A program made the position numbers and the translations under genes. Below the pieces are notes generated by a model, which saw only the letters and a program-made list of their open reading frames with translations, made no database searches and had not been told where the DNA came from. Shown one piece after another: positions 3,410-58,936 of a stretch of 60,221 bases of DNA (its first letter is position 1; every line of letters starts with the position of its first letter). Source of the stretch: Candidatus Omnitrophota bacterium (GTDB taxonomy: Bacteria; Omnitrophota; Gorgyraeia; Zapsychrales; Fredricksoniimonadaceae); NCBI GenBank assembly GCA_903860135.1, contig CAIOPG010000012.1, positions 1 to 60,221 of the forward strand. Direction: 5' to 3'.

Positions 3410-4270
3410 ATGAACTGTCATATTCAGTCTTTCCTTCAGAAATTGGCGGTTGAGAAGAATTATTCCGAGCATACCCTGTTGAATTACAGGCTTGACTTGG
3501 AAGAGTTCTTTCTTTTTCTGAGCCATGATGATGTCAAGGCCGTTGATTATCCGGTGTTGCGTCGTTTCCTTGCGCATTTGCGCGCCAAAGACCTGAAGCC
3601 GCGCAGTGTGGCGCGAAAGCTTTCATCGTTGAGGTCTTTTTTTAAATACCTTCAGCGCGAAGGGGTTATTGAAAAGAATCCGGCGGCGTTGTTGCAGACG
3701 CCCAAGCTTGACAAGACACTGCCGCATTTTATGACCGAACAGGATGCTGTTCGCCTGATGGAGGCACCGGCAGGGGACACGCTTTCTGATCGGCGTGACA
3801 AGGCGATTGTTGAAACGCTGTATTCAGCGGGGATCCGGGTGAGCGAGCTTGTGGGGATGAGTGTCACCGACGTTGACCTGATCAGCAATGTCATCAAGGT
3901 TTTTGGTAAAGGTAAAAAGGAACGGATCGTTCCCATGGGTGAAAAGGCCTGTGCCGCGCTCACGGATTACCTGGCGGCGCGCGGGTCTGAAGCTAAGGCT
4001 ATTTTTTTGAATAAGTCAGGCGGGCGGCTGACAGCGCGCAGTGTGCGCAATATCATTAACAAACATATTACCCGACAGTCTGTGGCGCAAAAAGTTCACC
4101 CGCATATGTTGCGGCATTCGTTCGCCACCCATATGCTCGATCACGGGGCTGACCTGCGTTGCGTCCAGGAATTGCTCGGGCATGTGAATCTTTCAACCAC
4201 ACAGATCTATACGCATTTGACAACTGATCGTTTGCGTCAGGTCTACGCAAAAGCGCATCCAAGGGCGTAA
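3410..4270 (+). CDS. tyrosine site-specific recombinase, XerC/XerD family
   Basis: N-terminal SAM-like domain (TLLNYRLDLEEF), catalytic HMLRHSFATHML and LGHVNLSTTQIYTH with terminal Tyr. I cannot distinguish XerC from XerD. Confidence 0.85.
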   Translation: MNCHIQSFLQKLAVEKNYSEHTLLNYRLDLEEFFLFLSHDDVKAVDYPVLRRFLAHLRAKDLKPRSVARKLSSLRSFFKYLQREGVIEKNPAALLQTPKLDKTLPHFMTEQDAVRLMEAPAGDTLSDRRDKAIVETLYSAGIRVSELVGMSVTDVDLISNVIKVFGKGKKERIVPMGEKACAALTDYLAARGSEAKAIFLNKSGGRLTARSVRNIINKHITRQSVAQKVHPHMLRHSFATHMLDHGADLRCVQELLGHVNLSTTQIYTHLTTDRLRQVYAKAHPRA

Positions 4271-5547
4271 TGATACTCGATCTCTTTTATCTCATTTATT
4301 TTTTCTTTTGCATACCGTTTTTGGTTTTACGCGGGCGTTGGCATGACGGTTTTGCCTTTCGGTTTGGTTGCTTTCCGAAGTCATTGGTCCGGGACCTTGC
4401 CTGGTCAAAGAATATCTGGGTTCATGCGGTTAGTGTTGGTGAAGCCGGTGCGGCCGAAGCGGTCATCAAGGGGCTTCGGGCGCGTTATCCGGATCATCGC
4501 ATTGTCCTGTCTGTTACGACCAGGGCCGGGCACGCTTTTGCCTGCCAGAAATATGCGGTGCTGGCGACGGTCATCTGGTCTCCGCTTGACTTGAGCGGCA
4601 CGGTGCGGCGTTTTATAAATGTTATTCGTCCCTTTATCTATGTGGTGGTCGAGACGGAACTGTGGCCGCATCTTTTTGCCAGGCTCGCCGAGGAGAAAGT
4701 CCCTGTGGTCATTATTAATGCCAGGATATCGGATCAGGCCTACCCGGGGTATTGCCTGGCCAGGCCTGTGATCAAGACGATGCTTGGCAAGGTCAGCCTG
4801 GTGTGTGCCCAGAGCGCGCTCGATGCCGAACGTTTCATCAGTCTGGGGGTGCTGAAAGATGCTGTTAAAGTGGTGGGCAATGTGAAGTTTGATGTTATCG
4901 CCTCTTTGGATTCGGATGGCCCTGCCGCACGCAGCGCTTTTGGCTTTAGCGCCACCGACAAGGTTTGGGTGGCGGCCAGCACACATCCCGGTGAAGAAGC
5001 ACTGGTCCTCGATGTTTTTACAGCCTTGCGCGACACTTTCCCTTGGCTTCGGCTGGTGCTGGTGCCGCGCCACCCTGAACGGGCGGCGGCAGTGGCACTG
5101 CTACTTCGTCAAAAGGGTTATAAGCCGATGTTGTTCACAGACCATGAGGCCAGGGTTGTTGGATCTGAAGAGGTTTTGGTCATCGATGAAATAGGGCATC
5201 TGATGCGCCTGTACGTGGCAGCGGATATTGTGTTGATGGGCAAGAGTTTTGGGATTCCCCGTCGGGGCGGGCAAAACCCGATCGAGCCGGCGGCCTGCGG
5301 CAAGCCTGTGATCACCGGTCCTTTCATGGAAAACTTCCGTGATGTGATGCGCCTTTTTAGGTCTGCGGAGGCTGTGATCGAGATCCAGGATGCCGCGAGC
5401 CTGCGCAAGGCCTTGCAGGAGATACTGGTATCACCGGACAAGTCTAATGGTTTGGCGGCCAGGGCGCGCGCGGTGGTTGACCGCAATCGCGGCGCGGCTG
5501 TCAGGACAGTAGATCTTATCGCGGACACAGGGATAAGGAGGCGCTAG
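4270..5547 (+). CDS. waaA: 3-deoxy-D-manno-octulosonic acid (Kdo) transferase
   Basis: WVHAVSVGE motif near the N-terminus and GT30-like length. TAATG overlap with the preceding stop. Sits in a lipid A context. Confidence 0.85.
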   Translation: MILDLFYLIYFFFCIPFLVLRGRWHDGFAFRFGCFPKSLVRDLAWSKNIWVHAVSVGEAGAAEAVIKGLRARYPDHRIVLSVTTRAGHAFACQKYAVLATVIWSPLDLSGTVRRFINVIRPFIYVVVETELWPHLFARLAEEKVPVVIINARISDQAYPGYCLARPVIKTMLGKVSLVCAQSALDAERFISLGVLKDAVKVVGNVKFDVIASLDSDGPAARSAFGFSATDKVWVAASTHPGEEALVLDVFTALRDTFPWLRLVLVPRHPERAAAVALLLRQKGYKPMLFTDHEARVVGSEEVLVIDEIGHLMRLYVAADIVLMGKSFGIPRRGGQNPIEPAACGKPVITGPFMENFRDVMRLFRSAEAVIEIQDAASLRKALQEILVSPDKSNGLAARARAVVDRNRGAAVRTVDLIADTGIRRR

Positions 5548-5549
5548 TC

Positions 5550-6602
5550 ATGAGCTTCTTTCTTCGACGCGTTATTTCAGGTGAAGATCATTCGTTGGTG
5601 GCACTGGCCGTCAGGCCTGTTTTATGGGTTTTGTCGTGTTTGTATGCGCTGATCGTGGTCATCTTGCGGTGGTTTTATGGGACAGGATTTTTTGGATCCG
5701 TCGCAGAGCGGTATCCAGTCATTAGTGTTGGTAATATTACGGTCGGCGGCGTTGGTAAAACACCGCTGGTCATTTTCTTGGCCAAGACATTGTACGCAAG
5801 GGGGAAACATCCGGTGATCCTGACACGCGGATACATGGCCGCTGAAAATGGCCGCAGTGACGAAGCAGAGATGATGGCAGAATGCCTGCCCGAAGTCCCG
5901 GTGATGGTCAATAGTGACCGCGTTCTGGCGATCAAGCAGGCCAAAGAACAGTACATGCCTGATGTTTTCATCCTCGATGACGGGTTTCAGCACTGGCGTT
6001 TGCAAAGAGACCTTGATATTGTGGCCATCGATGCGACCAATCCCTTTGGTAATGGACATGTCTTGCCCCGGGGGCTTTTGCGAGAGCCGTTGCACGCCCT
6101 CAAGCGGGCAGATCTCTTTATCCTTACCAAAACAGACCTAGGCGCGGCCAATGTTCCGGCTATCAAGGCGGTGCTGATGAAATACAACTTCGATTGTCCT
6201 ATTGTTGAAACGATTCACGCTCCCGTCGGGGTAAAGGATGTTCTGACCGGGAAACGTCAAAGCGGTTTTGATCTATTAAAAGATACAGTTGTCGGCGTGT
6301 GTGCACTGGGATTACCTGGGTCTTTTGAAGCATTATTATTAAGAGAAGGTGCTGTCATTGAGCGCATGTTCCATTTTAAAGATCATCACCTGTATACAAA
6401 AAATGATGTCTGGAAGATCGCGGCATATTGCCGTACAAAAAAACTTAACAAGGTCGTTACAACACACAAGGATGCTGTTAAAATAAGAAATTTTCCGGAG
6501 GCTTTTCAGGGGATAAGCCTTCTTGTCCTGGAGATTGAGATCAAGGTGACCGATGGGAAAGATGAACTCCTTTCAAGGCTCGATAGCCTCTGCTATTGTT
6601 AG
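5550..6602 (+). CDS. lpxK: tetraacyldisaccharide 4'-kinase
   Basis: N-terminal TM segment followed by the P-loop VGNITVGGVGKTP. Typical LpxK length. Confidence 0.9.
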   Translation: MSFFLRRVISGEDHSLVALAVRPVLWVLSCLYALIVVILRWFYGTGFFGSVAERYPVISVGNITVGGVGKTPLVIFLAKTLYARGKHPVILTRGYMAAENGRSDEAEMMAECLPEVPVMVNSDRVLAIKQAKEQYMPDVFILDDGFQHWRLQRDLDIVAIDATNPFGNGHVLPRGLLREPLHALKRADLFILTKTDLGAANVPAIKAVLMKYNFDCPIVETIHAPVGVKDVLTGKRQSGFDLLKDTVVGVCALGLPGSFEALLLREGAVIERMFHFKDHHLYTKNDVWKIAAYCRTKKLNKVVTTHKDAVKIRNFPEAFQGISLLVLEIEIKVTDGKDELLSRLDSLCYC

Positions 6603-13701: not shown

Positions 13702-14760
13702 ATGACACAAGCTGGGTCCTCCCAAAACTTTTCCCGTATTTTAATTATCCGTGCTGACAGGATAGGCGATACGGTGTTATCCACGCCAGTTATCGAGGCC
13801 ATGAGGACGGCCTATCCTTCGGCACATATTGCCGTGATGGTTCAAACCTATGTTAAAGATGTCGTTGCGAACAATCCCTTCCTGAATGAAATCATCATTT
13901 ACAACAAGAAGCAGGTCGAAGGCGACTGGCTGGGTTTTTCTCAGTTCGCGTGGGAAATAAGAAAAAAGAAGTTCGACCTTGCCTTGATCCTTCATCCGAC
14001 GAATATTGTTCATTCCCTTGCTTTCCTCGCTGGCATACCGCGCAGGGTCGGGTACGACCGCAAGATGGCTTTTCTTCTGACGGACACGATCAAAGATACC
14101 AAACACCTCGGGCAGAAGCATGAAATGGAGTATGTCCTGGATCTGGTGCGGCATCTGGGGATCGATCCTGTGCATCACGGGCCGTATGCGCCTTTGGACG
14201 CACGTTCTGAGCAATGGGCGGATGAATTATTGAGCAAGTACGGGCTGACACCCCAGGACAAGATATTGGCGTTGCATCCGGGAACCAGTTGCCGTTCCAA
14301 AATGTGGCCTGCGGCGTATTTTGCGGGAGCGGCCGATGAACTTGTCCGGCGTGAAGGCTTCAAGGTTTTGGTTCTGGGCGGGCCTGATGAAAAAGGAATA
14401 ACACAGGATGTTGTGCGGCGTATGTCTGCACCAGCCATTGAACTGGCCGGCATTTCTGTGAGCCAGGATACCAGTATCCTTAAACGATGCCAGCTGTTGC
14501 TCACAACCGATTGCGGGATCATGCATATCGCGGCGGCGCTGGGGGTTCCCCTTGTTGTTATTTTTGGAAGAAAACAGCCCGGGATCAGCCCGATCCGGTT
14601 CGGCCCCGTGAGCAAGCAAGGCCGGGTGTTGCATAAAGACGTTGGGTGTAGGCAATGCCTTGCCCATGAATGCACCAGGGGTTTTGCCTGCCTGCAGGCT
14701 GTGCGTGTGGACGAAGTGGTTGACGCGGCACAAGCGCTCCTCAAGGAGCCACATGCCTGA
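13702..14760 (+). CDS. GT9 family glycosyltransferase (LPS heptosyltransferase-like)
   Basis: ILIIRADRIGDTVLSTPVIEAMR and DCGIMHIAAALGVPLVVIFG. Confidence 0.8.
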   Translation: MTQAGSSQNFSRILIIRADRIGDTVLSTPVIEAMRTAYPSAHIAVMVQTYVKDVVANNPFLNEIIIYNKKQVEGDWLGFSQFAWEIRKKKFDLALILHPTNIVHSLAFLAGIPRRVGYDRKMAFLLTDTIKDTKHLGQKHEMEYVLDLVRHLGIDPVHHGPYAPLDARSEQWADELLSKYGLTPQDKILALHPGTSCRSKMWPAAYFAGAADELVRREGFKVLVLGGPDEKGITQDVVRRMSAPAIELAGISVSQDTSILKRCQLLLTTDCGIMHIAAALGVPLVVIFGRKQPGISPIRFGPVSKQGRVLHKDVGCRQCLAHECTRGFACLQAVRVDEVVDAAQALLKEPHA

Positions 14761-16174
14761 ACAAAGCCAATCATTCACACGCGAGGCGATCGCCTCGCTT
14801 TGCGCGCAGGCGGTGCATCCGGATGAAGTTGTCAGTAATACTGCGGTGCGCCGTTTATTCGCCGAGGTTGTCGAGGTTCTCAACGATTCTTTCTTGCCCA
14901 GCCGCGCGGCGCTTTACGACAAGATATTCACCCAAGTCATTAATCATTGCCGGCATCTTCCTGAAGGGAAGGGCCTTGATGAGCTTTTAAAGCGTTTTGA
15001 TATCACCGATGAACGTACCATGTTGGCCAGAAAGAAAAAGATACAGGCCGTAGCGGTCTTCTCGCCGACGGTGTTGAAGAAAGTCCGCAAGATCTGTGTC
15101 CTGTCGCGTGTGACGATCGGGGCTGATGTTGCTGTTACCGGTGTTGTCTTGCGCAAGTTGATGACTGTTTTTCCCGGCGTCAGCATCACCCTGATCGGAC
15201 CGAACAAGCTGGCCGAGGTGTTCGGTGGGCATCCTGATATCAGGATCAAGGATGTGCCGTATGCCCGTCGTGGCGGACTGCTGGGGCGGCTTTATGCCTG
15301 GGTCGACCTTGTGTCGATCATTGATGCAGAAAAGCAAGACCTGGAGCCGGAAGAGTTCCTGGTCATTGACCCTGATTCTCGCCTGACCCAGTTGGGGCTT
15401 TTGCCGGTTGTGCCGGAGGATCGAGGGTATTATTTCTTTCCGAGTAGGACGTATACCAACGGGCAGGCAAGTTCTATGGGTGCGCTGACCGCCTGCTGGC
15501 TTGAGGATATCTTTGGGGGTGGCAACAAGAAAATATATCCCGGAATATTTATTAATCAGGATGTGCTGGCGCTGGGCAAGACCTGCGCGCAGAAGCTTTC
15601 CTTGTCAGGCCAACGCCCAGTTGTCAGCATCAACTTTGGTGTTGGCGGCAATGAGAACAAAAGGGTTTCTTCCGTTTTCGAGGAGTGCCTTGTGGCCGCT
15701 ATTATCCAGCTGGGCGCGGCTGTTATCCTGGACAAAGGGTTTGGCAGTGAAGTCGCGCTGACCGATGCCATGCTCGCACGACTGAAATCAAAAGGCTTGG
15801 CTGTTCTTGAGGTCGACCCAGGGAATATTCAGGAGTTATCCCGGCAAAAATCCTTAACATACGATGTTCTGACGTGGGAGGGCGGTATCGGCGTTTTTAG
15901 TGCCATGATCGCGGCCAGTGATGTTTATATCGGTTATGATTCCGGTTTTCAGCACATTGCCGCGGCGCAGGGCATTGCGGTGATCGATGTCCTTATCGGT
16001 GCGGCATCGCCATTATTCGCCCGGCGCTGGACGCCTTACGGAAGGAATAATGTCCTGGTTATCCGTGGCTCACGGGGGCGGCGTGCCCAGCCGTATTCAG
16101 AGGCGATCCTAACCCAGATCACGGCATATCTGGGTAGAAAGTTATTGGCTAAAAATAATAAAAGTAATTCTTGA
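14753..16174 (+). CDS. divergent GT9-like glycosyltransferase with ~125-aa N-terminal extension
   Basis: ICVLSRVTIGADVAVTGVVLRKL and GYDSGFQHIAAAQGIAVIDV resemble the two GT9 signature regions. The ATG at 14753 overlaps the upstream stop (ATGCCTGA). The track ORF start at 14642 lies inside the previous gene. Confidence 0.6.
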   Translation: MPEQSQSFTREAIASLCAQAVHPDEVVSNTAVRRLFAEVVEVLNDSFLPSRAALYDKIFTQVINHCRHLPEGKGLDELLKRFDITDERTMLARKKKIQAVAVFSPTVLKKVRKICVLSRVTIGADVAVTGVVLRKLMTVFPGVSITLIGPNKLAEVFGGHPDIRIKDVPYARRGGLLGRLYAWVDLVSIIDAEKQDLEPEEFLVIDPDSRLTQLGLLPVVPEDRGYYFFPSRTYTNGQASSMGALTACWLEDIFGGGNKKIYPGIFINQDVLALGKTCAQKLSLSGQRPVVSINFGVGGNENKRVSSVFEECLVAAIIQLGAAVILDKGFGSEVALTDAMLARLKSKGLAVLEVDPGNIQELSRQKSLTYDVLTWEGGIGVFSAMIAASDVYIGYDSGFQHIAAAQGIAVIDVLIGAASPLFARRWTPYGRNNVLVIRGSRGRRAQPYSEAILTQITAYLGRKLLAKNNKSNS

Positions 16175-16177
16175 AAT

Positions 16178-16206
16178 TTGACATCATGCCGTTGGTATGT
16201 TATATT
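16178..16206 (+). promoter_or_regulatory. sigma70-like promoter upstream of the secreted-protein locus
   Basis: TTGACA (16178-16183), 17-nt spacer, TATATT (16201-16206). It sits in the 60-nt AT-rich gap between the LPS block and the 16235 gene. Confidence 0.55.
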
Positions 16207-16234
16207 TCAATTAACTCAATAAATAATAGAAAAA

Positions 16235-17593
16235 ATGTTAAAAACACTACTCACACTTTTTTTCGTGGTTTCGATGGTTTCTACATCTTTGGCGGCTGTC
16301 ACGTTAAGTGTGACACCGCTCGATGGTAGCAACAGTTTACGTCTTGATAATGTTACGGCTGGCCTGAATAATCGTAAAGAGATTCGTGTTCAGGTGGCTT
16401 CAACAGATGGTAACCGTTACCAGGTTTTTCAGCGATTGGTCGAGCCACTGATCAATGAAAAGGGTATGGCACTTGATAGCCAAGCGATTGAAACAGCGTC
16501 TTATAATAATACAAATTCTTCAGGTACGCTTTATTTGCAGAACGTTGAACGTGTCAATTTGAGCGAACAGCATCTTTATTCATCCGGGCAGGGTGGCGAC
16601 AGCGATTCGTTCATCATGGGATATTCTATTCGACCGGATCAGGTCGTTGAGGGCGGGCATTACACAGGAAGGCTGGTTTTTATCGTTCGGGCCGTAGGCA
16701 GTGATGCTCAGGATCAGGTGATTGTGAATGTTTCGCTTGAAAGTCAGTCCGTACGGGTGATCAAGGTTGCCGGCGCACATGTGGATGATCGTGTTACAAT
16801 TAAAGATACAGATAATTATAAAACTTTGACAGATTATGTCAAAGTTGCATTTTCAGGCAATGATCGTGATATTCGGATTTATCAGGAGTTTTCATCGTGG
16901 CCTAAAAATGTTAGGGGTGATGAGCTGGGACAGGGGCTTTTGCAGTTTAATGTGTCAAGTCTTTCCACTGATAATGCTATGGATCAAGGTGCGGTTGTGG
17001 CGGGTTTGGACAGGGTTCTTATTTATTCAGGATCGGCGCGTGCAAATGAAATAGCGGTGGCGTGGGTGATCGATCCTGAAAAGGTCAAGGGGCAGGATAC
17101 AGGATCTTATGAGGGAAAGCTGAAATATGTAGTGGAATCATCCGATGGACGCGAAGAATTTTTTGTTAACCTTGAATGTATTATTCAACCAGTTTTCACG
17201 ATCACGGTCGATGTTCCTCCTGGCGGGGTTAATTTTGGCAAGATTTTACCCAACAGCCCTGCTCAAGAGAAATCTGTTGATGTGATCGTTAATTCAAATC
17301 TTAAGAAGCCGTACCAGGTAGTTCAGGGGCTACAGGCGGCTATGACCAACCAGAAAGGAGAGCAGATCAATAATAAATATTTGATGATGAAGGTGGAGTT
17401 GCCGGCAGGACAAAAAGGACAGCCCAGATTCACGGAATTCACCCCTGTAGAGACCGCTGAATATCCAGTTTTTCTTTCCGATGCGCAGGGCAGTCCGGTG
17501 TCTTTTAAAGTTATATATAGTTTACAAGGGTACCCGGGGGTTATGCCTGGGGATTTTCTGGCACCTGTCAGGTTCAGCCTGCAGGAAAACTAA
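16235..17593 (+). CDS. secreted three-domain protein, putative fibre/tip subunit
   Basis: Sec signal peptide MLKTLLTLFFVVSMVSTSLAAV. Three ~140-150-aa internal repeats each carry a [RP]YQV.Q.L...N.KG-like motif. Each ends in a G.Y.G.L-type strand: GGHYTGRLVFIV, TGSYEGKLKYVV, PGDFLAPVRFSL. Confidence 0.6.
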   Translation: MLKTLLTLFFVVSMVSTSLAAVTLSVTPLDGSNSLRLDNVTAGLNNRKEIRVQVASTDGNRYQVFQRLVEPLINEKGMALDSQAIETASYNNTNSSGTLYLQNVERVNLSEQHLYSSGQGGDSDSFIMGYSIRPDQVVEGGHYTGRLVFIVRAVGSDAQDQVIVNVSLESQSVRVIKVAGAHVDDRVTIKDTDNYKTLTDYVKVAFSGNDRDIRIYQEFSSWPKNVRGDELGQGLLQFNVSSLSTDNAMDQGAVVAGLDRVLIYSGSARANEIAVAWVIDPEKVKGQDTGSYEGKLKYVVESSDGREEFFVNLECIIQPVFTITVDVPPGGVNFGKILPNSPAQEKSVDVIVNSNLKKPYQVVQGLQAAMTNQKGEQINNKYLMMKVELPAGQKGQPRFTEFTPVETAEYPVFLSDAQGSPVSFKVIYSLQGYPGVMPGDFLAPVRFSLQEN

Positions 17594-17608
17594 AAAAAGG
17601 AGAATGTT

Positions 17609-18304
17609 ATGAAGAGGATAATGGGGTTAATAGCAACAGCCGTATTTGTGGTAGGGGTTGCCGGGTCAGCGCATGCTATTGTCGCGACGGACACTTTTTC
17701 GCTCACGGCGACCATGCAGGCAGTTTCATCGATTAGTATGAGTGTTAATTCGGTTGATTCAGCCACATCGAAGATTTGGACACCCGTAACAGTCACGGGA
17801 GGAGCTGCAGCGTTGAGTTTCGATCCTATGTCATATAAAACGTTCTATGATACCGTTGATCCAACAAAGGTAGTTGGTAATGCATGGCTTCCCGATCATT
17901 TTTTTGCCATTGATATTGGTTCTCAGGGTTCTGTAACTAACTATACCGTTGCGGTGAAATATGCCGAAACCAATGCGGATAATCCAAACTTTGCTGCGGG
18001 TGGTCATGGTTTGGGTTGGAAATCGACCGTAACGTTTATGCAGGAAACAGGTACTGCTGAAAATGCGATTGTAAGGCATGGTGGCGCGGGCAAGATGTTG
18101 CTTAAAGACATTGCTTTGACAGGAGCTACCGGTCAAGTTGTTACAAAAGCTGATGTAGGTTCCGGTTGGTTAAGATTGTATGTTGGTATCGTGGCTAAGG
18201 CTACGACAGGCATTGCGGATCCGGCGGCAGGCGAAGTGTTCACCAATGCGGATGCTGCTGGTGCTTATAAGGGCACACTGACAATTGTTGCAACAATGAC
18301 CTGA
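17609..18304 (+). CDS. secreted protein, putative major fibre subunit (paralogue A)
   Basis: Strong RBS (AAGGAG) and signal peptide ...VAGSAHA. Shares blocks with the 18422 gene: GHGLGWKSTVTFM, HGG.GKMLLKD, GEVFTN.D..G.Y.G.LTI.AT. Followed by a strong hairpin terminator. Confidence 0.6.
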   Translation: MKRIMGLIATAVFVVGVAGSAHAIVATDTFSLTATMQAVSSISMSVNSVDSATSKIWTPVTVTGGAAALSFDPMSYKTFYDTVDPTKVVGNAWLPDHFFAIDIGSQGSVTNYTVAVKYAETNADNPNFAAGGHGLGWKSTVTFMQETGTAENAIVRHGGAGKMLLKDIALTGATGQVVTKADVGSGWLRLYVGIVAKATTGIADPAAGEVFTNADAAGAYKGTLTIVATMT

Positions 18305-18325
18305 TTAGTGTTGGTTTGATTTCTC

Positions 18326-18393
18326 CGGACACAGCCAGACGATAGTCTTTCTTGGCTTGGAAAGTATCGCTGGCTGTGTCCGTTAGGTTTTTT
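18326..18393 (+). terminator. intrinsic terminator/attenuator hairpin between the two paralogous subunit genes
   Basis: Long near-perfect inverted repeat CGGACACAGCCAG.CGATA..CTTTC / GAAAG.TATCG.CTGGCTGTGTCCG (18326-18382), followed by a T-run at 18388-18393. Confidence 0.7.
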
Positions 18394-18421
18394 AAAACTA
18401 AAATCATACTTTCAGGATACT

Positions 18422-19090
18422 ATGAAAACAATAAAAGGATTACTTTGGGTGTTTCTCGTGATCCTCTTTATGACTAAATCTAGTTATGCCTTTATTATGA
18501 ATAAAGATTTGGGTCTTGTGGCCACCATCGAGGCTGCCACTGGTTTGAATTTCCTTACCTTCTCGGTGACGAACAGCTCGGGTAGTGATGTCCTTTCCCC
18601 GGCAGGTTCAACGTTATCTTTCGGTGATCTTATTTACAGCGCGGTCACGGATCCTTTAACACATGTTGTGTCCACTTCCTGGCGATCGGATCACGCATTT
18701 GCCATTGAGATCGCGCCTGTTGGTGGAACGGCTAGTACGATGAATATTAATGTGCAATATAGTGAATTGACTAATCCAAACAGTACGACGAACGGGCATG
18801 GTTTAGGATGGAAGTCAACGGTAACATTTATGAACATTATAAATAATGTCGAATCACCTATAACTGCTCACGGTGGTACCGGCAAGATGCTCCTTAAGGA
18901 TTTGCCAGAATCAGGTGAGGCGGTAACATCCGCACAGATCATTGCTGGATCGTTGCGGATGTATATCGGGATGGTTGCCAAAGATCCATCTGCCGCCATC
19001 CCGGATCCGGTCGATGGTGAGGTGTTCACCAATTTTGATCAGCCTGGTGAATATACTGGGAAATTAACGATTTCAGCCACAGGTTTTTAA
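18422..19090 (+). CDS. secreted protein, putative fibre subunit (paralogue B)
   Basis: Signal peptide ...MTKSSYA. By eye roughly 40-45% identical to the 17609 product, with the same conserved blocks. C-terminus PGEYTGKLTISATGF. Confidence 0.6.
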   Translation: MKTIKGLLWVFLVILFMTKSSYAFIMNKDLGLVATIEAATGLNFLTFSVTNSSGSDVLSPAGSTLSFGDLIYSAVTDPLTHVVSTSWRSDHAFAIEIAPVGGTASTMNINVQYSELTNPNSTTNGHGLGWKSTVTFMNIINNVESPITAHGGTGKMLLKDLPESGEAVTSAQIIAGSLRMYIGMVAKDPSAAIPDPVDGEVFTNFDQPGEYTGKLTISATGF

Positions 19091-19100
19091 GGATAGACCC

Positions 19101-19922
19101 ATGATAAACGCAGGCAAGATAACTTTTAAAGTCATGTTTGTTACGTTAGTGATTTTTGGCTTAACAGCCAGTCAGGCAAGAGCCCAGTATTTTATTGAGG
19201 GGGGCAAGGAAGTGCTTGCAGTGTCAGGTGGTGAGCGTATTAATAAATCTGTCATCATTCACAATTCAACCGCAGAGAATATTTCCTTGAAAGCTTCGTG
19301 GGAAGATTTTCAGTACGAACCCCCTTTTGACGGCACAAAGTCTTTTGTCCCGGCAGGCACAGGCACGCGCTCGCTCAGCCAGTGGATCAGTTTTTCTTCG
19401 ACTCCATTTATAATCCCCCCCTTTGGACAACAGCAGCTCAATTATACGTTAAGTGTGCCAGCGGTAATCAAGGACGGATATTACGGTGTGCTTTTTGTTG
19501 AAAGAGCAGGTGATCCCGAAAATACAAAGACTGGGTTGCAGATCATTACCCGTGTGGGCAGTCTTTTCTTTGTTGAACCTAAGGATGCGGTGAGAAAGGC
19601 TCAGATCCGTGACATCGCCATTGCGGGCACAACGCTCAAAGGGATATTCCATAATCAGAGTACCGTTGTGCTGATCCCTAAGATGACCTATTATTTTATG
19701 GATGAGCAGGGTGTTGTAGCTGATCGGGGCGATATTAAAGCATTATATCTTCCGCCCGATGGAGCGGGCAATTTTGAGATCGCTTTGCCGGCAGGTTTGG
19801 CCATTGGGAAAAACACGTTGGTCATCAATGCCGAGCTTGAAGACAATAATGTTGTTGTCAAAGAAGTGGAAATAACCAAGGATGCCGCGGCTAATCTGAC
19901 GATTTTAAATACACGGGATTGA
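19101..19922 (+). CDS. secreted protein, putative PapD-like periplasmic chaperone
   Basis: Signal peptide ...ASQARAQ. RINKSVIIHNSTAENISLKASWEDF and PFIIPPFGQQQLNYTLSVP...GLQIITRVGSLFFVEP parallel PapD-family patterns (R.i....k..s+.+.N......+q.W+ ; P.+v.PP...l.p...q.lR+ ; lq.a...riKLfyRP). Two-domain length (~250 aa mature). Confidence 0.45.
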   Translation: MINAGKITFKVMFVTLVIFGLTASQARAQYFIEGGKEVLAVSGGERINKSVIIHNSTAENISLKASWEDFQYEPPFDGTKSFVPAGTGTRSLSQWISFSSTPFIIPPFGQQQLNYTLSVPAVIKDGYYGVLFVERAGDPENTKTGLQIITRVGSLFFVEPKDAVRKAQIRDIAIAGTTLKGIFHNQSTVVLIPKMTYYFMDEQGVVADRGDIKALYLPPDGAGNFEIALPAGLAIGKNTLVINAELEDNNVVVKEVEITKDAAANLTILNTRD

Positions 19923-19967
19923 CCATGAAGGTCATGGATCCTTTCTTATGCCTATGGCCGAGATATT

Positions 19968-22847
19968 ATGACCATAAAACAAGCGTTGATTGTCGTCCTT
20001 TCTGGATTGGTTATAATGATATGTCTGACCCCATCATGGGCCAGTAACGCTAATACTTACAAATATTTTATTAATGAAGGTAAGCACGCCATTGAACGCC
20101 GGGATATTCCTAGGGCGCTGCATTGTTTCAAATGGGCGTATCGGATCAATCCCCAGGCATCAGAGCCACTTGATTATCTCAATAATGTGCCTGGCGGTAA
20201 AGCTGTTTTGGATCAGGAAGTGATTTATGCCTCACTCATGGCATCGCGTATCGCCCCTCCGCGCAAATTTCAAGATACGCAAGCACTCATCGACCATATC
20301 AATTTGGTGAAACGCTCCCTGGACAAGATGATACGGCCTGCGGTGACAGTTCCGCCTGTTGCTATGGTGCCTATATCACATCCTGTTACTGAGGCCGTTA
20401 AAAAAGATGAGCCTACGCTCACGGCCACAAAGACTTATACGCGTCAGGGCAAGAAAGCGGTGGAGGATGTCATCCTCCTCGCAGATATAGTCAAAAGTAC
20501 GATACCCAGGCCAACCCTGCGCCTGGAAATCGGCAGAACCATTATTCTTGAAGGCAAAAATATTCAGAAGTTTTTGGTTGTTTCCGGTGAGATCATCGGG
20601 GTCAAGCGGTTGTCGGCCGATCGCCTTCAGGTGGTGGCTGTTATGCGCGGCAGTACCATATTCCACGTTTGGGATGATGCCGGACGAACAACAATCTATA
20701 TGGAGACACTTTTCCCTGATTCTTCTGGGGACAATGGGAATGTGAGGTCTTCGTCGTTTGAACATGCGGCACCGTTCAGGTTCAGTTATTCCAATAACTG
20801 GAGCGGTTATTATATGGCACCGCGCGGTTCGCGCATGAAGCGTCAGGGTCTATCCTTTAACGAAAACGTTGGGGTTAACGGGGAGACGCCGTATGGGTAT
20901 CTAGATTCCTCGGCTTCTCTGTCCGGTTTTAATCCTGTCAGGGATATTCCTGCCTATACCTTGGGCTTGACCGGTATCCCTGTGCCTGGCACAAGGGCTA
21001 TGAGTGTCCGGCTTTTTGATTCGACAAGGTCTTTGTCGCCGCTGAGTATGCCAGGGGCGCATTTACGTGGTGCGTTTGTGGATCTCCAAGCATTTAAGGA
21101 AGCTGTTGGCTTTTCCGTAACTCACGGGCAGTTACAGCCGACTTTTGGTTTTTCCATGTTATCAAGCGCACAGCAATCTTATCTGGATGCTTTTAAGGTG
21201 GTGCTTTTCCCCAATGACCGGGATCATCATTATGCGTTTAATTATGCCCGAGGATCCGGGGCAGATCGCAATACCGCTCTTACTGCGCAGGCTTACTCGG
21301 TCGAAGGTGTTTACAGGATTAACAAGGTGCTTTTCAATGCGGAGCTGGCTCGCGATAGCCGCAATACCGCTTCTATCGGGGGGATGTCCTGGGGCGGCAA
21401 GGGATGGGATTCAGCCTTGAGTTTTAAGAATATCAACAAGAATTTCACAACCGTGACCAGTGCGCCTTCCGGTCAAGGGACAACCAGTATGCTGTGGACA
21501 TCCAATATCAACGCTGAATCATACTCTGCTGGCACCATGCTGGATGTGACCCGGCAAAGGCTTTACACAAATCCGAATAATCCGGATGCGCTGGATTATG
21601 ATGCCAACGCTAACATAAATATCCCGTTGAGTCCGAAACTTGCGTTTGCCAGCCGTGTGCGTTATGTGGATACCGCCGGAGATATATTGCCCCGCCACAG
21701 CATGGGCCTTAACACCGGTCTTACCAGGAACATAGAGGTCTGGGGGGGGCGGAATGGTTCTGTTTATGTGAGCGGAGGGTATCAGGAAAGCACCTATCCG
21801 GATAATCCGACGTCAGATTACCATTCGTATGATGCAGCGACAGGCGTCAATCTTTCGCTGACAAAAAACCTGTCATGGTATCTTAGTTATCAATATTCGT
21901 GGCTCATTGAGGGGCTTTCAGATTTTATGTCGAATCCGATGGCAACAACAACCGGTCTATCGTATAACAGGCAATTCATGGAACGTCTTTCCGGGAATTT
22001 CAGCCTTTCTTATCGTAATGAACAGAGCACCCAAAGCCTCAACAGTTTCATGGCAGGTGAGGATAGTGTTGGTCTGTCCGGTTCGCTGACGTATAATCCC
22101 AAGAATGACCTGAGCTATTTCATTGATTCGAATGTACAGAATGTTTGGTCAAAGGCCGGACAGAGTACATCCTATACCAGCATGGATCTGCGGATGGGGA
22201 TGCGCGGTATCTGGGGTACTTCTCTTGTATGGGATCCCAAAGGGGCTGTGTCAGGTGTGGTTTATAAAGACAAAAACGGCAATGGGAAGAAAGATGAGGG
22301 GGAACCAGGCCTTCCTGATATCAAGGTCAAAGCTGGTGAGAAGGAAGCGATTACGGACAAGGATGGGCGGTACCGCATTGAAGTCAAGGGGAAAAGGGTG
22401 AACGTGACACCGCTGATGGAAACGATCCCGACAGGTTATATTTTTTCGACGCCTTCATTTTTTAAAGTGGATATTCTTCACGGCATTGCGCGGGTCGTCG
22501 ACTTCGGACTGACAACCCAATCAGGGATTTACGGCATTGTGTTTGTAGATAAAAACGGGAACAACCAGCCTGACAGGGGGGATCAGTTTCTTCAGCACGT
22601 CAAGATTTTGCTTGATGGCAAAAAAACTATCATGAGCGATTCACAGGGTACTTATTTTTTCCAGAAAGTTTCCGAGGGCGGGCATAATATTGCCATAGAC
22701 ATGAAAACCTTGCCACAAGGCCTTATCCCTCTTATTAAGATCAAGAATGACATTGTGGTGACTGAGGGCATCAATTATATATTCCATATCCCCATGAGGC
22801 AGAAGGCTGTCGAGCCTCCTATAGAACCACAACGCTCCGAAAAGTGA
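19968..22847 (+). CDS. large outer-membrane protein: TPR-like segment, CpaC/RcpC-type pilus N-terminal domain, beta-barrel, two C-terminal Cna-B/CarboxypepD_reg-like domains
   Basis: Signal peptide ...TPSWASNA. LRLEIGRTIILEGKNIQKFLVVSGEIIGVKRLSADRLQVVAVMRGSTIFHVWDD resembles the 'pilus formation protein N-terminal' domain. A long region has alternating-hydrophobic strands (LSLTKNLSWYLSYQYSW, LSGNFSLSYRNEQ). Two repeats follow: GVVYKDKNGNGKKDEGEPGLPDIKV...TDKDGRYRIE and GIVFVDKNGNNQPDRGDQFLQHVKI...SDSQGTYFF. Confidence 0.6.
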   Translation: MTIKQALIVVLSGLVIMICLTPSWASNANTYKYFINEGKHAIERRDIPRALHCFKWAYRINPQASEPLDYLNNVPGGKAVLDQEVIYASLMASRIAPPRKFQDTQALIDHINLVKRSLDKMIRPAVTVPPVAMVPISHPVTEAVKKDEPTLTATKTYTRQGKKAVEDVILLADIVKSTIPRPTLRLEIGRTIILEGKNIQKFLVVSGEIIGVKRLSADRLQVVAVMRGSTIFHVWDDAGRTTIYMETLFPDSSGDNGNVRSSSFEHAAPFRFSYSNNWSGYYMAPRGSRMKRQGLSFNENVGVNGETPYGYLDSSASLSGFNPVRDIPAYTLGLTGIPVPGTRAMSVRLFDSTRSLSPLSMPGAHLRGAFVDLQAFKEAVGFSVTHGQLQPTFGFSMLSSAQQSYLDAFKVVLFPNDRDHHYAFNYARGSGADRNTALTAQAYSVEGVYRINKVLFNAELARDSRNTASIGGMSWGGKGWDSALSFKNINKNFTTVTSAPSGQGTTSMLWTSNINAESYSAGTMLDVTRQRLYTNPNNPDALDYDANANINIPLSPKLAFASRVRYVDTAGDILPRHSMGLNTGLTRNIEVWGGRNGSVYVSGGYQESTYPDNPTSDYHSYDAATGVNLSLTKNLSWYLSYQYSWLIEGLSDFMSNPMATTTGLSYNRQFMERLSGNFSLSYRNEQSTQSLNSFMAGEDSVGLSGSLTYNPKNDLSYFIDSNVQNVWSKAGQSTSYTSMDLRMGMRGIWGTSLVWDPKGAVSGVVYKDKNGNGKKDEGEPGLPDIKVKAGEKEAITDKDGRYRIEVKGKRVNVTPLMETIPTGYIFSTPSFFKVDILHGIARVVDFGLTTQSGIYGIVFVDKNGNNQPDRGDQFLQHVKILLDGKKTIMSDSQGTYFFQKVSEGGHNIAIDMKTLPQGLIPLIKIKNDIVVTEGINYIFHIPMRQKAVEPPIEPQRSEK

Positions 22848-23076
22848 TCAATTGATTGTTCCTGACCAGTTGCTGTTCCTGCACCAGCGGAAGGTTCTGT
22901 TGTTGAATCGTACTAATTCCGGTTGATGCCTGTTCCGTTTCCTGCGGTATGGTTATCATGCGTGGGAGTGTGACAGAAAGAATGAATGATTGTGTTTCTG
23001 TTACGCCATTGGCCAGAACGAATGTTGGGAAGGAAATGATGATCAACAGCGCGAGGGGGAGTATTTTGTTTAACAT
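22819..23076 (-). CDS. small secreted protein (85 aa), convergent with the outer-membrane protein gene
   Basis: Signal peptide MLNKILPLALLIIISFPTFVLANG and AAGAGG Shine-Dalgarno 8 nt upstream. Its 3' end overlaps the 959-aa ORF by 29 nt. Confidence 0.45.
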   Translation of the reverse strand: MLNKILPLALLIIISFPTFVLANGVTETQSFILSVTLPRMITIPQETEQASTGISTIQQQNLPLVQEQQLVRNNQLITFRSVVVL

Positions 23077-23080
23077 GTCG

Positions 23081-23130
23081 GGCCTCTTTCTTTCAGTAAG
23101 GTTAAGATGAGCCTGAAAGAAAGGACGGCC
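23081..23130 (-). promoter_or_regulatory. Shine-Dalgarno-sequestering hairpin in the leader of the 85-aa ORF
   Basis: On the minus strand: GGCC-GTC-CTTTCTTTCAG, a 16-nt loop, then CTGAAAGAAAG-A-GGCC. The 3' arm contains the AAGAGG ribosome-binding site. Perfect 11-bp stem plus a 4-bp extension. Confidence 0.45.
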
Positions 23131-23328
23131 ACGAGAAAACCCCGGAGGGATATTCTTGATTTCGGCAACCAGACAACCTTTCTCATTAACAGTATGAGTT
23201 AAGGCTCACGGCTTTGCGTCCTACTCTTTCAAGTAGTTTGCCTTTTTCGGATACAAAGAACAGGAGCTGCATGACACAATCAAAGTATAACATTTGAAAA
23301 ATCAAATTGCTATTTTTTATCGGGGGCA

Positions 23329-24927
23329 TTGTTGAATACAGCAAAAGACGTAATTTTCTTTGGATTTGATCGCAAGATACCTTTTTATCTGATGGGCATC
23401 TTCCTGTTCATGATATCGCTGCTGACGTATATCAATGCGTTCACGAACGGTTTCATGTTCGATGATTTCACCTGTTTATTTGGTCAGTATAGTGTCGCGG
23501 GGAGATCTTTTGCTGATATATTCATGCATAATCAGGCTGGTTTCTACCGGCCGGTGGGGCATCTTCTTTTGTGGATCTCGGCGGGCGTATTTGGGAATAA
23601 TGTTATCGGCTATCATGCGGTTAATTTTTGTCTTTTTCTTTTGATGCTTTTCTTTTTTGTGATCATCGCTGAGAAATTAACGCAGAATAGGATGCTGGCT
23701 TTTATGGCGGGGTTGCTGTATGCGGTACATCCGATCAACGGCATGTCGGTCAATTACATAACAGCCTGTAATAATTCGTCGTATGTGTTGCTGATGCAAC
23801 TTAGTTTAATTTCATATATCTATTATACGGAGTCCAGACGGAAGTATTTATATGTACTCAGCTTCATTGGCTTCATATTGGCGTTCCTTGCCCATGAAAT
23901 TGCCCTCTTATTACCATTCTTTCTTATTGCCTATCGTATTGTTTGTAAAGGCGCCCGCTTGAAGCCATCGTTTTATTCGGTTGCTCCTTTTATTGTATTG
24001 GCAGGCTGTTATTTTCTTTTTCGGTCGAATGGAACGGCGGTTTTTGTTCATAAAATAAATATTCCAATAAGTGCGACCGGCGACCTGATGGCATATTTCT
24101 CGACATGGGTGGATCTTATACGCTGGTATTTTACTCAATTGATTTATCCCGCAAAAGTTGTTTTTTTATGGAGTGCCAAGATGGGATCCGCGCGTTTTAT
24201 CGTTAATGCGGCTATATTTCTTCTGGGATCGATCGGGTTTTGTTACTTTATTATAAAGAACGGGAAGAACTGGAAGTCTTTTGCCTTACTTTTATTTCTG
24301 GGGGGGTGCGCACCTACATTTTATAGTTGTTTTGTGTTTTCACCGAAGGTATGGCCTTATTTTGAGCCGCATTGGATGTATTTTTCTCAAATGGGTTTCT
24401 TTATACTGGCTGGCGCTTTCTTCTACTATATAATCAAGAGAAATAGGTTGGTTGGACATTTGTTGATCGTTGCGGTACTGTGTTTGTTTATTGTTTGCTC
24501 CTGGCAGTATAATTCAAAGTGGCGGACGCAGGAGGAGTACTCTCGTTACTGGTTGTCCGTAAATCAGGGGAATTTAACAGCCTTTTATGGGCTGGGAACT
24601 TCTTTGATGGATAAAGGTGATTATGCCGGGGCAGTTGATGTCTTCAGATCGGCCAATACGCTCCTGGGGAATATTTCTGTGGCCATGGCTGTCGCTCTAG
24701 GGCATTGCTATGATGAGTTGGGTAACGGTACAGAGGCATTAGTAATATTTAATACGGTCACTAAAGAGAATCCCGGAAATGCACTTGTTTATCATTATAA
24801 AGGTTTGTACCTGATGAAACGTGGGGATCATGCTTTAGCCAGAGAAGCTTTTTTAAAATCCGTTAAACTGGATCCTAAATTTTCTTTATCGTATCCCTAC
24901 CTTCAGGATACACGCCTGAAGAAATAG
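23329..24927 (+). CDS. polytopic membrane protein with C-terminal TPR repeats (TMTC/PMT_2-like GT-C glycosyltransferase candidate)
   Basis: About 10 hydrophobic segments, an FMFDDF acidic motif in the first loop (GT-C hallmark), and C-terminal TPR-like repeats (GLGTSLMDKGDYAGAVDVF..., YHYKGLYLMKRGDHALAREAFLKSVKLDP). The start is uncertain: TTG at 23329, with ATG alternatives downstream. Confidence 0.55.
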   Translation: MLNTAKDVIFFGFDRKIPFYLMGIFLFMISLLTYINAFTNGFMFDDFTCLFGQYSVAGRSFADIFMHNQAGFYRPVGHLLLWISAGVFGNNVIGYHAVNFCLFLLMLFFFVIIAEKLTQNRMLAFMAGLLYAVHPINGMSVNYITACNNSSYVLLMQLSLISYIYYTESRRKYLYVLSFIGFILAFLAHEIALLLPFFLIAYRIVCKGARLKPSFYSVAPFIVLAGCYFLFRSNGTAVFVHKINIPISATGDLMAYFSTWVDLIRWYFTQLIYPAKVVFLWSAKMGSARFIVNAAIFLLGSIGFCYFIIKNGKNWKSFALLLFLGGCAPTFYSCFVFSPKVWPYFEPHWMYFSQMGFFILAGAFFYYIIKRNRLVGHLLIVAVLCLFIVCSWQYNSKWRTQEEYSRYWLSVNQGNLTAFYGLGTSLMDKGDYAGAVDVFRSANTLLGNISVAMAVALGHCYDELGNGTEALVIFNTVTKENPGNALVYHYKGLYLMKRGDHALAREAFLKSVKLDPKFSLSYPYLQDTRLKK

Positions 24928-34999: not shown

Positions 35000-35073
35000 G
35001 CGAGAGTAGTTCAGTGGTAGAACCTTAGCCTTCCAAGCTGATGACGCCGGTTCGATTCCGACCTCTCGCTCCA
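35000..35073 (+). tRNA. tRNA-Gly (anticodon UCC)
   Basis: Manual fold. Acceptor GCGAGAG/CTCTCGC, D arm GTTC-AGTGGTA-GAAC, anticodon arm TTAGC-CTTCCAA-GCTGA. T arm GCCGG-TTCGATT-CCGAC has one C-A mismatch. CCA is encoded. Confidence 0.85.
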
Positions 35074-39860: not shown

Positions 39861-39944
39861 CCTAAAAATGTTTTTACGACATTTTGCTTTTCAAGTCGTT
39901 CATTTTCTGTATAATTAAAAGTCTTTATAAATAATATTTTTTAT

Positions 39945-40018
39945 CGGGGCGTAGCGCAGCTGGCTAGCGCACTTGAATGGGGTTCAAGAGGTCGTGGGTT
40001 CAAATCTCACCGCTCCGA
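39945..40018 (+). tRNA. tRNA-Pro (anticodon GGG)
   Basis: Manual fold. Acceptor CGGGGCG/CGCTCCG, D arm GCGC-AGCTGGCTA-GCGC, anticodon arm CTTGA-ATGGGGT-TCAAG, T arm GTGGG-TTCAAAT-CTCAC. CCA is not encoded. Confidence 0.85.
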
Positions 40019-40101
40019 TTTTATATTTAGTCTGGTTTCTTCAATTCGTATTATCGCGAAATAACGGCTAATGCACAATCCAGGTTTAAGGTAAAAGGAG
40101 G

Positions 40102-54872: not shown

Positions 54873-54886
54873 CCAGACAGGGATTT

Positions 54887-58601: not shown

Positions 58602-58898
58602 ATGATTAAAGATAAACGCACCTATAAAGATCGTAAAGAATATTTGATCAAGGCCGTTTATGCCCGACGTAAGAAAGTCCGTGAAATGGCAATCTTATAT
58701 AAGGGAGGGAAATGTGAGAAGTGTGGATATAATCGTTGTATTGACGCATTGGAATTTCATCATATAGACCCTACACAGAAAGATTTTAATATTTCCAGCA
58801 AAGGATATACTCGTAGTTGGGAGCGAGTTAAGCTTGAACTTGATAAATGTACCATCCTATGTGCTAATTGTCATAGGGAAACGCATGTTAAAAGTTAA
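58602..58898 (+). CDS. small free-standing HNH endonuclease
   Basis: CEKCGY...LEFHHIDP..K...CANCHRETH (HNH with flanking Cys pairs). GC is visibly lower: hand counts give 33-40% in two 60-nt lines, against 57% in a neighbouring nrdB line. Confidence 0.8.
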   Translation: MIKDKRTYKDRKEYLIKAVYARRKKVREMAILYKGGKCEKCGYNRCIDALEFHHIDPTQKDFNISSKGYTRSWERVKLELDKCTILCANCHRETHVKS

Positions 58899-58936
58899 TA
58901 GCCTGAAATTCTTTCGAAATTCTTTCTTTCTGTTTG

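Follow-up and report, generated by a model that had tools for sequence, protein, structure and literature searches.

What does a run of secreted proteins, most of them without a named family, build on the surface of a bacterium, and with what machinery? This question is raised by a compact unit at 16178-23252 of a 60,221-nt stretch of Candidatus Omnitrophota DNA (assembly GCA_903860135.1, contig CAIOPG010000012.1, forward strand), hereafter the window. The unit comprises a promoter, the plus-strand genes A-B-C-D-E, and a minus-strand gene F with a riboswitch (Table 1). A first-pass annotation of this DNA had proposed a chaperone-usher-like surface-fibre locus whose outer-membrane component is not a PapC-type usher. 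The reading that we favour, with slightly more confidence than doubt, is that the locus assembles a fibre by donor-strand exchange on a platform other than an usher, with cyclic di-GMP (c-di-GMP) as the tuning signal.

Omnitrophota are uncultured, mostly ultra-small and apparently host-dependent, and their attachment has been attributed to type IV pili, Tad pili and giant proteins (PMC10066038). To these, the module described here adds a strong candidate for another surface appendage, one under c-di-GMP control. The literature that we searched, on Omnitrophota, pili and chaperone-usher systems, DUF916 and c-di-GMP riboswitches, holds no description of it. In agreement with the proposal that the locus is not an already characterised system, neither this literature nor our family searches provided a match.

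A module with a fixed gene order in Omnitrophota

The five co-directional open reading frames (ORFs) A to E were all found at the positions first annotated, downstream of a near-consensus promoter, and each product begins with a Sec signal peptide as read from its sequence (basic n-region, hydrophobic stretch and AxA-like site). In the AlphaFold models of D and B, the N-terminus stands apart as a single helix. The first gene list therefore held for A to E, but it had overlooked the convergent gene F, a c-di-GMP-I riboswitch and a hairpin after B. F falls inside the interval that had been annotated and the riboswitch lies just beyond its end. In the window, the 3′ ends of F and E overlap by 29 nt.

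Homologues of D (n = 66 in a collection of 5.8 billion proteins) were without names, and the few with an organism label came from Candidatus Omnitrophota; homologue searches with B and E gave the same picture. With each GTDB species represented by one genome, D relatives were identified in 111 genomes. Of these, 80 loci were fetched, almost all from Omnitrophota metagenome-assembled genomes (MAGs), and family hidden Markov models were mapped onto the ORFs called in 85 loci. The exact order and orientation A-B-D-E followed by reversed F was present in 52 of the 85, and nearly all of the others were contig ends or had additional B paralogues (extra B-family ORFs occurred in ∼13/85 loci). A was found in 78/85 loci, each time immediately 5′ of B, and F in 76/85, each time on the minus strand directly after E. 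The families thus co-occur, as the first-pass annotation supposed, and across about 80 species-level genomes their order is fixed although the flanks differ. The neighbours vary among loci (e.g. PseudoU_synth, Thy1 and AsmA), and since the flanking genes differ, the unit travels as a module. It is present in more than 100 species-level genomes, with all of its genes annotated as hypothetical.

Two whole-module copies were present on separate contigs of one MAG (BWOrgControl_Nextera26_MAG2; loci L024 and L034), and therefore a genome can hold more than one system. Some module contigs carry the label 'Methanosarcinales archaeon' (L051) or 'uncultured Planctomycetales' (L011, L013, L016, L017 and others), which is probably mis-binned or placeholder taxonomy for Omnitrophota.

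A chaperone-like protein and its candidate subunits

Protein D had been likened to PapD-type periplasmic chaperones. Its AlphaFold model (54-sequence alignment; pLDDT 94, pTM 0.83) divides into two beta-sandwiches, one at residues 30-160 and the other at 167-272, and confidence dips in residue blocks 131-150, ahead of the strand RVGSLFFVEP. D therefore models with the tandem Ig-like fold of such chaperones, and it matched essentially every solved chaperone-usher chaperone. In a Foldseek search of the PDB, the first matches were Enterococcus WxLIP (9i25 and 9i1y; E 3e-12, TM 0.45), followed by CfaA, FimC, Caf1M, CsuC, EcpB, SafB, DraB and YadV (E 1e-9 to 1e-7). The chaperone-usher chaperones, among which all classes were represented, matched with a Foldseek probability of 1.00, and CfaA reached a TM-score of 0.64 (target-normalised). 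The parallel with PapD thus stands for the tandem beta-sandwich fold but not for Pfam membership, since PapD_N and PapD_C (PF00345/PF02753) matched 0/54 D members at E ≤ 10.

Profile comparison identified a closer relative. With nine E. coli K-12 fimbrial operons fetched as the comparison set, hhalign gave 90.4% for the D family against EcpB/EcpE (E 1.4e-6, 170 columns) and 4% against nine FimC-type chaperones; the control, EcpB against FimC-type chaperones, itself gave only 30%. The best PDB sequence match of the D profile was likewise EcpB (E 0.08), over the F1-G1 region. By these profile comparisons, D is homologous to EcpB, a bona fide chaperone-usher chaperone. PapD-like chaperones complete the sandwich of their partner with their own G1 strand, and from the model we propose residues 127-160 of D as a candidate F1-G1-like hairpin. 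Two basic residues are invariant in 54 D sequences, K36 in the first strand and R151, with which the strand RVGSLFFVEP begins. K36 aligns with R8 of FimC, and R151-V-G with the RIK of RIKLYYRP (G1), in a non-significant alignment whose register is off by 2-3 residues. The placement hints at a possible counterpart of R8/K112, the basic cleft pair with which PapD grips the C-terminal carboxylate of a subunit. The D profile retrieved 7149 matches at E ≤ 1e-3, 196 of them at E ≤ 1e-30, from 1.84 billion representative proteins, which places D in a large family that is for the most part uncharted.

The candidate partners of D are A, B and C. B and C are indeed paralogous (40% identity, E 2e-48), and the C-terminal G.Y.G.L strand from which their subunit role was first deduced is real and conserved: in the B family it reads G.Y.G.L.I.AT, with G218 and G222 invariant and Y220 nearly so. 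The C-terminal strand of each family ends 1-2 residues short of the terminus in B and in F, and ∼3 residues short of it in A. Right after the signal peptide, the B family has an N-terminal stretch with the consensus TFxVSATIPxATGV. In the AlphaFold model of B (18-sequence alignment; pLDDT 81.5, pTM 0.75) the body is a confident beta-sandwich, and mature residues 24-41 are unstructured, with pLDDT < 50 at 30-32 and 34-37, on the conserved motif. In this model, the conserved segment outside the monomer fold looks like a putative trans-acting donor strand.

The further assignment of the subunits to SCPU/Csu-type pilins was not borne out, with no SCPU or Fimbrial Pfam match at E ≤ 10 and no significant pilin match in Foldseek. 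SCPU (PF05229), Fimbrial (PF00419) and WxL had 0 matches in 21 B-family and 26 A-family members at this threshold, an hhalign comparison of the subunits with 20 E. coli pilins aligned the signal peptide alone, and PDB sequence searches with single proteins and family profiles returned none for A or B. The best fold matches of B were CBM15 (E 0.012), the TasA fibre (0.013), CfaE (0.06) and EcpA (0.7), all with TM ≤ 0.39. Membership of the subunits in SCPU/Csu was rejected on the Pfam result, B as a WxL domain or known pilin fold because no Foldseek match fell below E 0.01, and a relationship of B to the A domains because hhalign gave ≤ 6%. In NCBIfam and Pfam, A, B, C and D had no above-threshold match, consistent with the original view that they carry no motif of a characterised family.

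The three-domain architecture of A was supported by mutual homology of its domains (hhalign 99.2%, 99.2% and 96.4%), each of which finishes in a G.Y.G/A strand. A begins directly with its first domain, without the N-terminal motif of B and F, and its family had no Pfam or PDB sequence match. Alternating-hydrophobic linkers are conserved after the G.Y.G strand of domains 1 and 2 (QVIVNVSLE and EFFVNLECII; window 16640-16760 and 17090-17200), and domain 3 is without such a linker. It may be that each linker completes its own domain in cis, so that domains 1 and 2 are closed and only domain 3 is open for B.

In the mature F protein of ∼60 aa, the motif SFILSVTLP is followed by a linker that varies and by a C-terminal strand (R..Q.I...VVV), with no room for a domain beside motif and strand. 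We searched for the motif as an 8-residue pattern, [FYLIVMW]x[VLIF][ST][AVLFCI][TSVYI][VIL]P. Among B ORFs 51% carried it and among F ORFs 78%, always a few residues past the signal peptide; elsewhere it was found in 10/5101 other ORFs from these loci (0.2%), 0/86 D, 1/79 A and 1/92 E. The pattern of motif and domain therefore sorts the parts into candidate acceptor-only (A), donor-plus-acceptor (B and C) and donor-only (F) proteins. By analogy, this sorting follows the tip, shaft and terminator logic of chaperone-usher pili.

The leading structural neighbour of D raises another interpretation, namely a WxL-like surface-display complex in which D would be a permanent partner holding A and B, E the anchor or exit, and the product a fixed oligomer (e.g. 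glycan- or host-binding). Besides the WxLIP fold match, WxLIP_PGBD (DUF916, PF06030) was the most specific Pfam family for D, matching 23/54 members (best E 1e-5, below threshold), and WxLIP_HBD (DUF3324, PF11797) matched 6/54. The D of the window itself matched neither family, and in wider-family members WxLIP_PGBD scored 19.9-21.4 bits against a cut-off of 27.3. WxLIP is predicted to complete the beta-sandwich of its WxL partner with a hairpin strand, and WxL clusters too join small and large partners with one WxLIP (PMC10599100). A glycan-binding product would also agree with the best, weak, fold match of B being a carbohydrate-binding module, and with the GH26-CBM9 glycosidase that adjoins a variant locus (L094, described below). 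However, the D sequence (...NLTILNTRD) finishes where its second domain does, has neither a hydrophobic tail nor a membrane anchor such as the C-terminal one of WxLIP, and would therefore be soluble in the periplasm. In addition, Pfam found no WxL domain in A, B or C, and the top 50 Foldseek matches for B did not include the WxL chain of 9i25. A fixed complex also does not readily account for a donor-like motif that B has in common with F, a protein without a domain. We consider a display complex of this kind unlikely.

The predicted outer-membrane component E

E had been described as a Tad/CpaC-type pilus N-terminal domain, a beta-barrel and two Cna-B-like domains. The terminal parts of this description were confirmed, i.e. 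T2SS-T3SS_pil_N at residues 182-241 (8e-7) and two SdrD_B/CnaB-like domains (1.4e-10), while the barrel is so far a prediction from sequence. An N-terminal TPR region that had been missed completes the layout: TPR at ∼30-145, pil_N, predicted barrel at ∼265-750, and the SdrD_B/CnaB-like pair at ∼760-950. In 25 E members, Pfam recognised SdrD_B in 25, T2SS-T3SS_pil_N in 23, CarboxypepD_reg-like in 22 and TPR in 13, with scattered weak matches to OMP_b-brl, Opacity, BBP2_2 and DUF5777. Secretin (PF00263) had no match in these 25 members at E ≤ 10. Residues ∼265-750 are barrel-like in composition and in their alternating pattern. An amphipathicity scan gave approximately 18-20 amphipathic strand signals within residues 270-750, and this ∼480-aa region is predicted to form a beta-barrel through which E may act as a pore. 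The E profile matched only TPR proteins in the PDB, through its N-terminus, and none for the barrel.

The claim that E is not a PapC-type usher was upheld at the level of sequence, since Usher (PF00577), PapC_N and PapC_C matched 0/25 members even at E ≤ 10. Comparison by hhalign gave 5% for E against seven ushers and 0.4% against EcpC, and was insensitive, because the control of EcpC against the other ushers reached just 11%; the verdict therefore relies on Pfam. This insensitivity leaves some room for a deep-branching but ordinary chaperone-usher system, in which E would be a true usher (24 strands, a plug, and N- and C-terminal domains) too diverged to be recognised by sequence, and the subunits archaic sigma-type pilins. 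Assembly would then run as in the favoured reading and would not represent a novel type of machine. Such a system would fit the usher-like part order of E (periplasmic N module, ∼480-aa barrel region and two C-terminal beta-sandwiches) and the profile-level link of D to EcpB, and the N-terminus of B (F.VSATIP.A.G.S....L.F) presumably resembles the start of SCPU pilins. Yet Pfam recognises remote Ecp-type ushers, none of the terminal domains of E (TPR, pil_N and SdrD_B/CnaB-like) is of usher type, and the subunit families contain neither SCPU nor Fimbrial members nor a significant pilin fold match. We therefore find an ordinary usher system improbable.

A more distant arrangement was found on a metagenome contig, L094, which carries a three-domain relative of D. 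The single-protein scan of species genomes gave no three-domain D variants; L094 came from a metagenome scan. This locus has six adjacent plus-strand genes. It holds four tandem genes for secreted proteins of ∼170 aa, which share homology with the A domain and finish in G.Y..I...TE, together with the D-like gene, the small beta-barrel protein and an 867-aa E-like protein. The latter is without TPR and aligns to the E profile from pil_N through the barrel into SdrD_B (E 1e-87). From this content, we reason that the D/E pairing is older than the Omnitrophota form and that the subunit type is swappable.

It is very doubtful that E is instead a channel for other cargo (polysaccharide export like BcsC/PgaA, or nutrient uptake) with A, B and D as accessory binders and no fibre: E does begin with TPR followed by a barrel, exopolysaccharide systems are often under c-di-GMP, and the locus in the window is flanked by heptosyltransferase genes and a block of glycan-synthesis genes of low guanine-plus-cytosine (GC) content, but this glycan context is not kept at other loci, where unrelated genes flank an intact A-B-D-E-F, TPR is detectable in only about half of the E members and absent from L094, which retains the rest of E, the conserved module includes no glycosyltransferase or synthase gene, and a channel would leave both the chaperone-fold protein and the common terminal motifs without a function.

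Expression signals and the c-di-GMP riboswitch

The promoter upstream of A has 11/12 consensus matches and was the top plus-strand site within 15800-23500. As a class, promoter-like sites were not enriched in the region (16 compared with 13.7 ± 4.0 expected from shuffled sequence), and the promoter is therefore plausible rather than statistically proven. Within the operon, a consensus Shine-Dalgarno sequence (AAGGAG) is present at B only. The hairpin after B has a dG of −40.3 kcal/mol (z = −5.05), and 0/200 shuffles folded as well. In most loci the B gene is likewise followed by a strong hairpin (median best dG −27.9 kcal/mol, 77% ≤ −20), compared with median best values of −14.3 after A and −15.9 after D; its position is kept across loci and its sequence is not. 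This predicted structure behaves as an attenuator behind the major-subunit gene. Together, the attenuator and the strong ribosome-binding site of B imply a large excess of B over D, which fits a polymer with a recycling chaperone and not the 1:1 complex of a WxL-like arrangement. In agreement, the roles that had been assigned by gene order (tip, major subunit, minor subunit, chaperone and pore) fit the best Shine-Dalgarno sequence being that of B and the conserved attenuator after B, features known from major pilin genes, and also the motif-free A.

The aptamer upstream of F matches its Rfam model over the full length (model positions 1-87 of 87). Downstream in the F leader, a hairpin formed by CCUUUCUUUCAG...CUGAAAGAAAGAGG covers the F ribosome-binding site in a single minimum-free-energy fold, and at 23151-23139 on the minus strand there is a weak stem and U run resembling a terminator. 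Rfam recognised an aptamer in 9/9 other loci tested, eight at 71-82 bits and the ninth as the GGC variant RF03167. In the closest relative locus (L005, 12242-12333, minus strand), the best match is c-di-GMP-I-GGC RF03167 (62.7 bits, gathering score 59), and the aptamer ligand may differ in some lineages. A covariance model of our own, built from ten riboswitch matches, found 63 matches in 62/81 sources, all on the minus strand. F and a riboswitch just upstream of it were both present in 59/69 loci having at least 600 nt after E. One locus (L013) has two riboswitch copies downstream of E, at 4194-4285 and 5478-5570 on the minus strand, the second ∼1.2 kb further.

The F stop codon lies within ∼30 nt of the E stop in most loci (typical offsets −28 to +20 nt). 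Because F and E converge, read-through of the riboswitch transcript would run antisense to E, which is a possible second, RNA-level c-di-GMP route to the operon.

Table 1. Coordinates of the module genes and control elements in the window
Feature	Position	Strand	Description
Sigma-70-type promoter	16178-16206	+	TTGACA-17 nt-TATATT, extended -10 TG; 60-nt gap before A
Gene A	16235-17593	+	452 aa, secreted; three tandem homologous domains of ∼140 aa each
Gene B	17609-18304	+	231 aa, secreted; proposed major subunit
Hairpin and U-rich run	18326-18394 (stem 18326-18382)	+	Putative attenuator or terminator in the 117-nt gap after B
Gene C	18422-19090	+	222 aa; B paralogue, second (minor) candidate subunit
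Gene D	19101-19922	+	273 aa (262 aa if the start is Met12); proposed donor-strand chaperone
Gene E	19968-22847	+	959 aa; proposed outer-membrane assembly/translocation platform
Gene F	22819-23076	-	85 aa, secreted; convergent with E; proposed donor-only capping/anchoring subunit
Expression platform	23077-23160	-	84 nt, aptamer to F start codon; minimum-free-energy fold
c-di-GMP-I riboswitch aptamer (RF01051)	23161-23252	-	F 5′ leader; 75.9 bits, gathering score 35

Other features surround the module, in the window and elsewhere. In some loci, large secreted extras lie 5′ of A (∼1.5 kb upstream in L064, L071 and L078; also in L077 and L080). These are ∼502-aa proteins matching the E profile, probably through their SdrD_B domains, and ∼504-521-aa proteins matching the B profile; an 807-aa orphan secreted protein is encoded upstream of A in L001 (5541-7964). 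Such large extras may be lineage-specific accessory or adhesin subunits. In the window, an ORF at 14642-16174 (∼470-510 aa) fills the interval from the heptosyltransferase genes to the promoter and overlaps the end of the preceding gene; it had no Pfam match at E ≤ 1e-5. GC content falls from ∼0.53 to 0.41-0.49 over ∼26 kb (16000-42000), beginning at the fibre locus, and the low-GC block also holds glycosyltransferase, radical SAM/SPASM and TPR-membrane protein genes, tRNA-Gly (35000-35073) and tRNA-Pro (39944-40019). This block may be a variable or acquired surface-structure island. Further downstream, a group I intron (RF00028, 59112-59353; 61.2 bits, gathering score 50) lies just after ribonucleotide reductase-like genes (54851-57517 and 57549-58577). 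A nearby 98-aa ORF (58602-58898) is HNH-endonuclease-like, with the motifs CEKCGY...HHIDP...CANCH, and 58602-59353 looks like a homing-endonuclease and intron insertion.

Proposed assembly and relation to known systems

The donor-strand reading can be set out as an assembly pathway, whose product would be a protein fibre or short polymer on the Omnitrophota cell surface, comparable to those of chaperone-usher systems. All six proteins would cross the inner membrane via Sec, as predicted from their signal peptides. In the periplasm, D would cap each subunit by placing its F1-G1 hairpin strand beside the C-terminal G.Y.G.L strand, and the D-subunit complexes may then be received by E through its periplasmic domains, TPR and secretin-N-type. 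At E, the TFxVSATIP extension of an incoming B would displace the D strand in the previous subunit, and the growing polymer would be threaded outward through the large E barrel. For these central steps, we infer strand donation by D and strand exchange between subunits. A would go first and end at the tip, because it has three complete domains and no N-terminal extension. B would form the shaft, since its strong ribosome-binding site and the attenuator hairpin behind it predict that it is produced in excess. F, with a donor motif and no acceptor domain, could only end the chain, and would cap or anchor the fibre. Its synthesis would be set by the c-di-GMP-I riboswitch, so that the signal for an attached or a free lifestyle would also bear on how long the fibre grows or whether it is retained.

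Several points weigh against this pathway. The TM-scores of D are modest (0.4-0.64), and WxLIP, the protein nearest to it in structure, is regarded as a partner that stays bound at the surface and not as a chaperone that is recycled. The K36/R151 correspondence leans on an hhalign alignment at 4%, which is not significant. PapD, Usher, Fimbrial and SCPU Pfam families had no match in any module family, and on the usher side the low EcpC control (11%) limits what hhalign can say. The link from B to pilins is made by motifs, since Foldseek found nothing below E 0.01 in the PDB and thus no significant solved relative, and the shallow 18-sequence alignment could itself account for the unplaced N-terminus of B. 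Likewise, the barrel and pore role of E come from its sequence, and the role of F from a single motif.

If the donor-strand reading is true, this is a chaperone-dependent donor-strand system without a PapC-type usher, and the minimal task of an usher becomes testable. The riboswitch-run capping mini-subunit would then be a new coupling of a second messenger to appendage length or retention. There is a realistic chance that the module is a distinct class if E is not an usher. A more far-reaching version, which we offer tentatively and regard as possible rather than probable, is that Omnitrophota widely possess a third, previously unrecognised diderm donor-strand machine. It would combine a WxLIP/EcpB-like chaperone, orphan-fold subunits, a non-usher platform (TPR, secretin-N, new barrel and CnaB-like domains) and a 60-aa donor-only terminator or anchor gated by a c-di-GMP riboswitch. 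Since D sits between the WxLIP of Firmicutes and EcpB-type chaperones, our comparisons suggest a common origin of strand-donating chaperones in monoderms and diderms. Were the third-machine version true, WxLIP and Gram-negative pilus chaperones would be branches of one strand-donating lineage.

Among known systems, chaperone-usher operons share the most with the module, especially those of the alternate pathway, the E. coli common pilus (EcpA-E, with the chaperone EcpB) and CFA/I (with CfaA). Both have a tip-like protein, a major subunit with an attenuator, a minor subunit, a chaperone and a large outer-membrane protein. D adds a two-domain chaperone fold and profile similarity to EcpB, the subunits have a conserved N-terminal extension and a C-terminal strand, and the donor-only candidate terminator F follows the logic of PapH and FimI. 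In contrast to these operons, the module has no members of Pfam PapD, Usher, Fimbrial or SCPU, and E keeps the same part order with other domains (TPR, secretin-N, orphan barrel and SdrD_B). The fold of B is an orphan, and the candidate tip protein A repeats a single domain three times in tandem. As candidate terminator the module has a mini-protein of 60 aa, whose gene is convergent and preceded by a c-di-GMP riboswitch, and the host is Omnitrophota.

The WxL clusters of Firmicutes (WxLIP = DUF916 + DUF3324; 9i25 and 9i1y) provide the best folds for D and its only family-specific, sub-threshold Pfam matches, and they likewise combine small and large partners with one WxLIP(-like) protein. Unlike in these clusters, D has no transmembrane anchor, there are no WxL domains and no LPXTG protein, and the module has a diderm host, a dedicated outer-membrane protein and expression signals that point to a polymer. 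With the Tad/Flp secretins CpaC/RcpA, E shares its N-terminal T2SS-T3SS_pil_N domain (PF13629) and nothing else: it is without a Secretin domain, ATPase, platform and prepilin genes are not nearby, and its membrane part looks like a single-chain barrel instead of a multimeric secretin. TasA and archaeal bundling-pilus fibres resemble the module in the weak fold match of B and in their N-terminal donor-strand logic. However, these fibres are chaperone-free, the TM-score is 0.28, and the module has a dedicated chaperone and outer-membrane protein.

Finally, c-di-GMP-I (GEMM-I) riboswitches control pilus, adhesin and flagellar genes, e.g. in Clostridioides difficile and Vibrio cholerae. The Omnitrophota module is similar to these cases in that a full-length, high-scoring aptamer leads a candidate surface-structure gene. 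In contrast to them, the aptamer here would govern only the mini-protein gene F, which overlaps the structural operon and is convergent with it.

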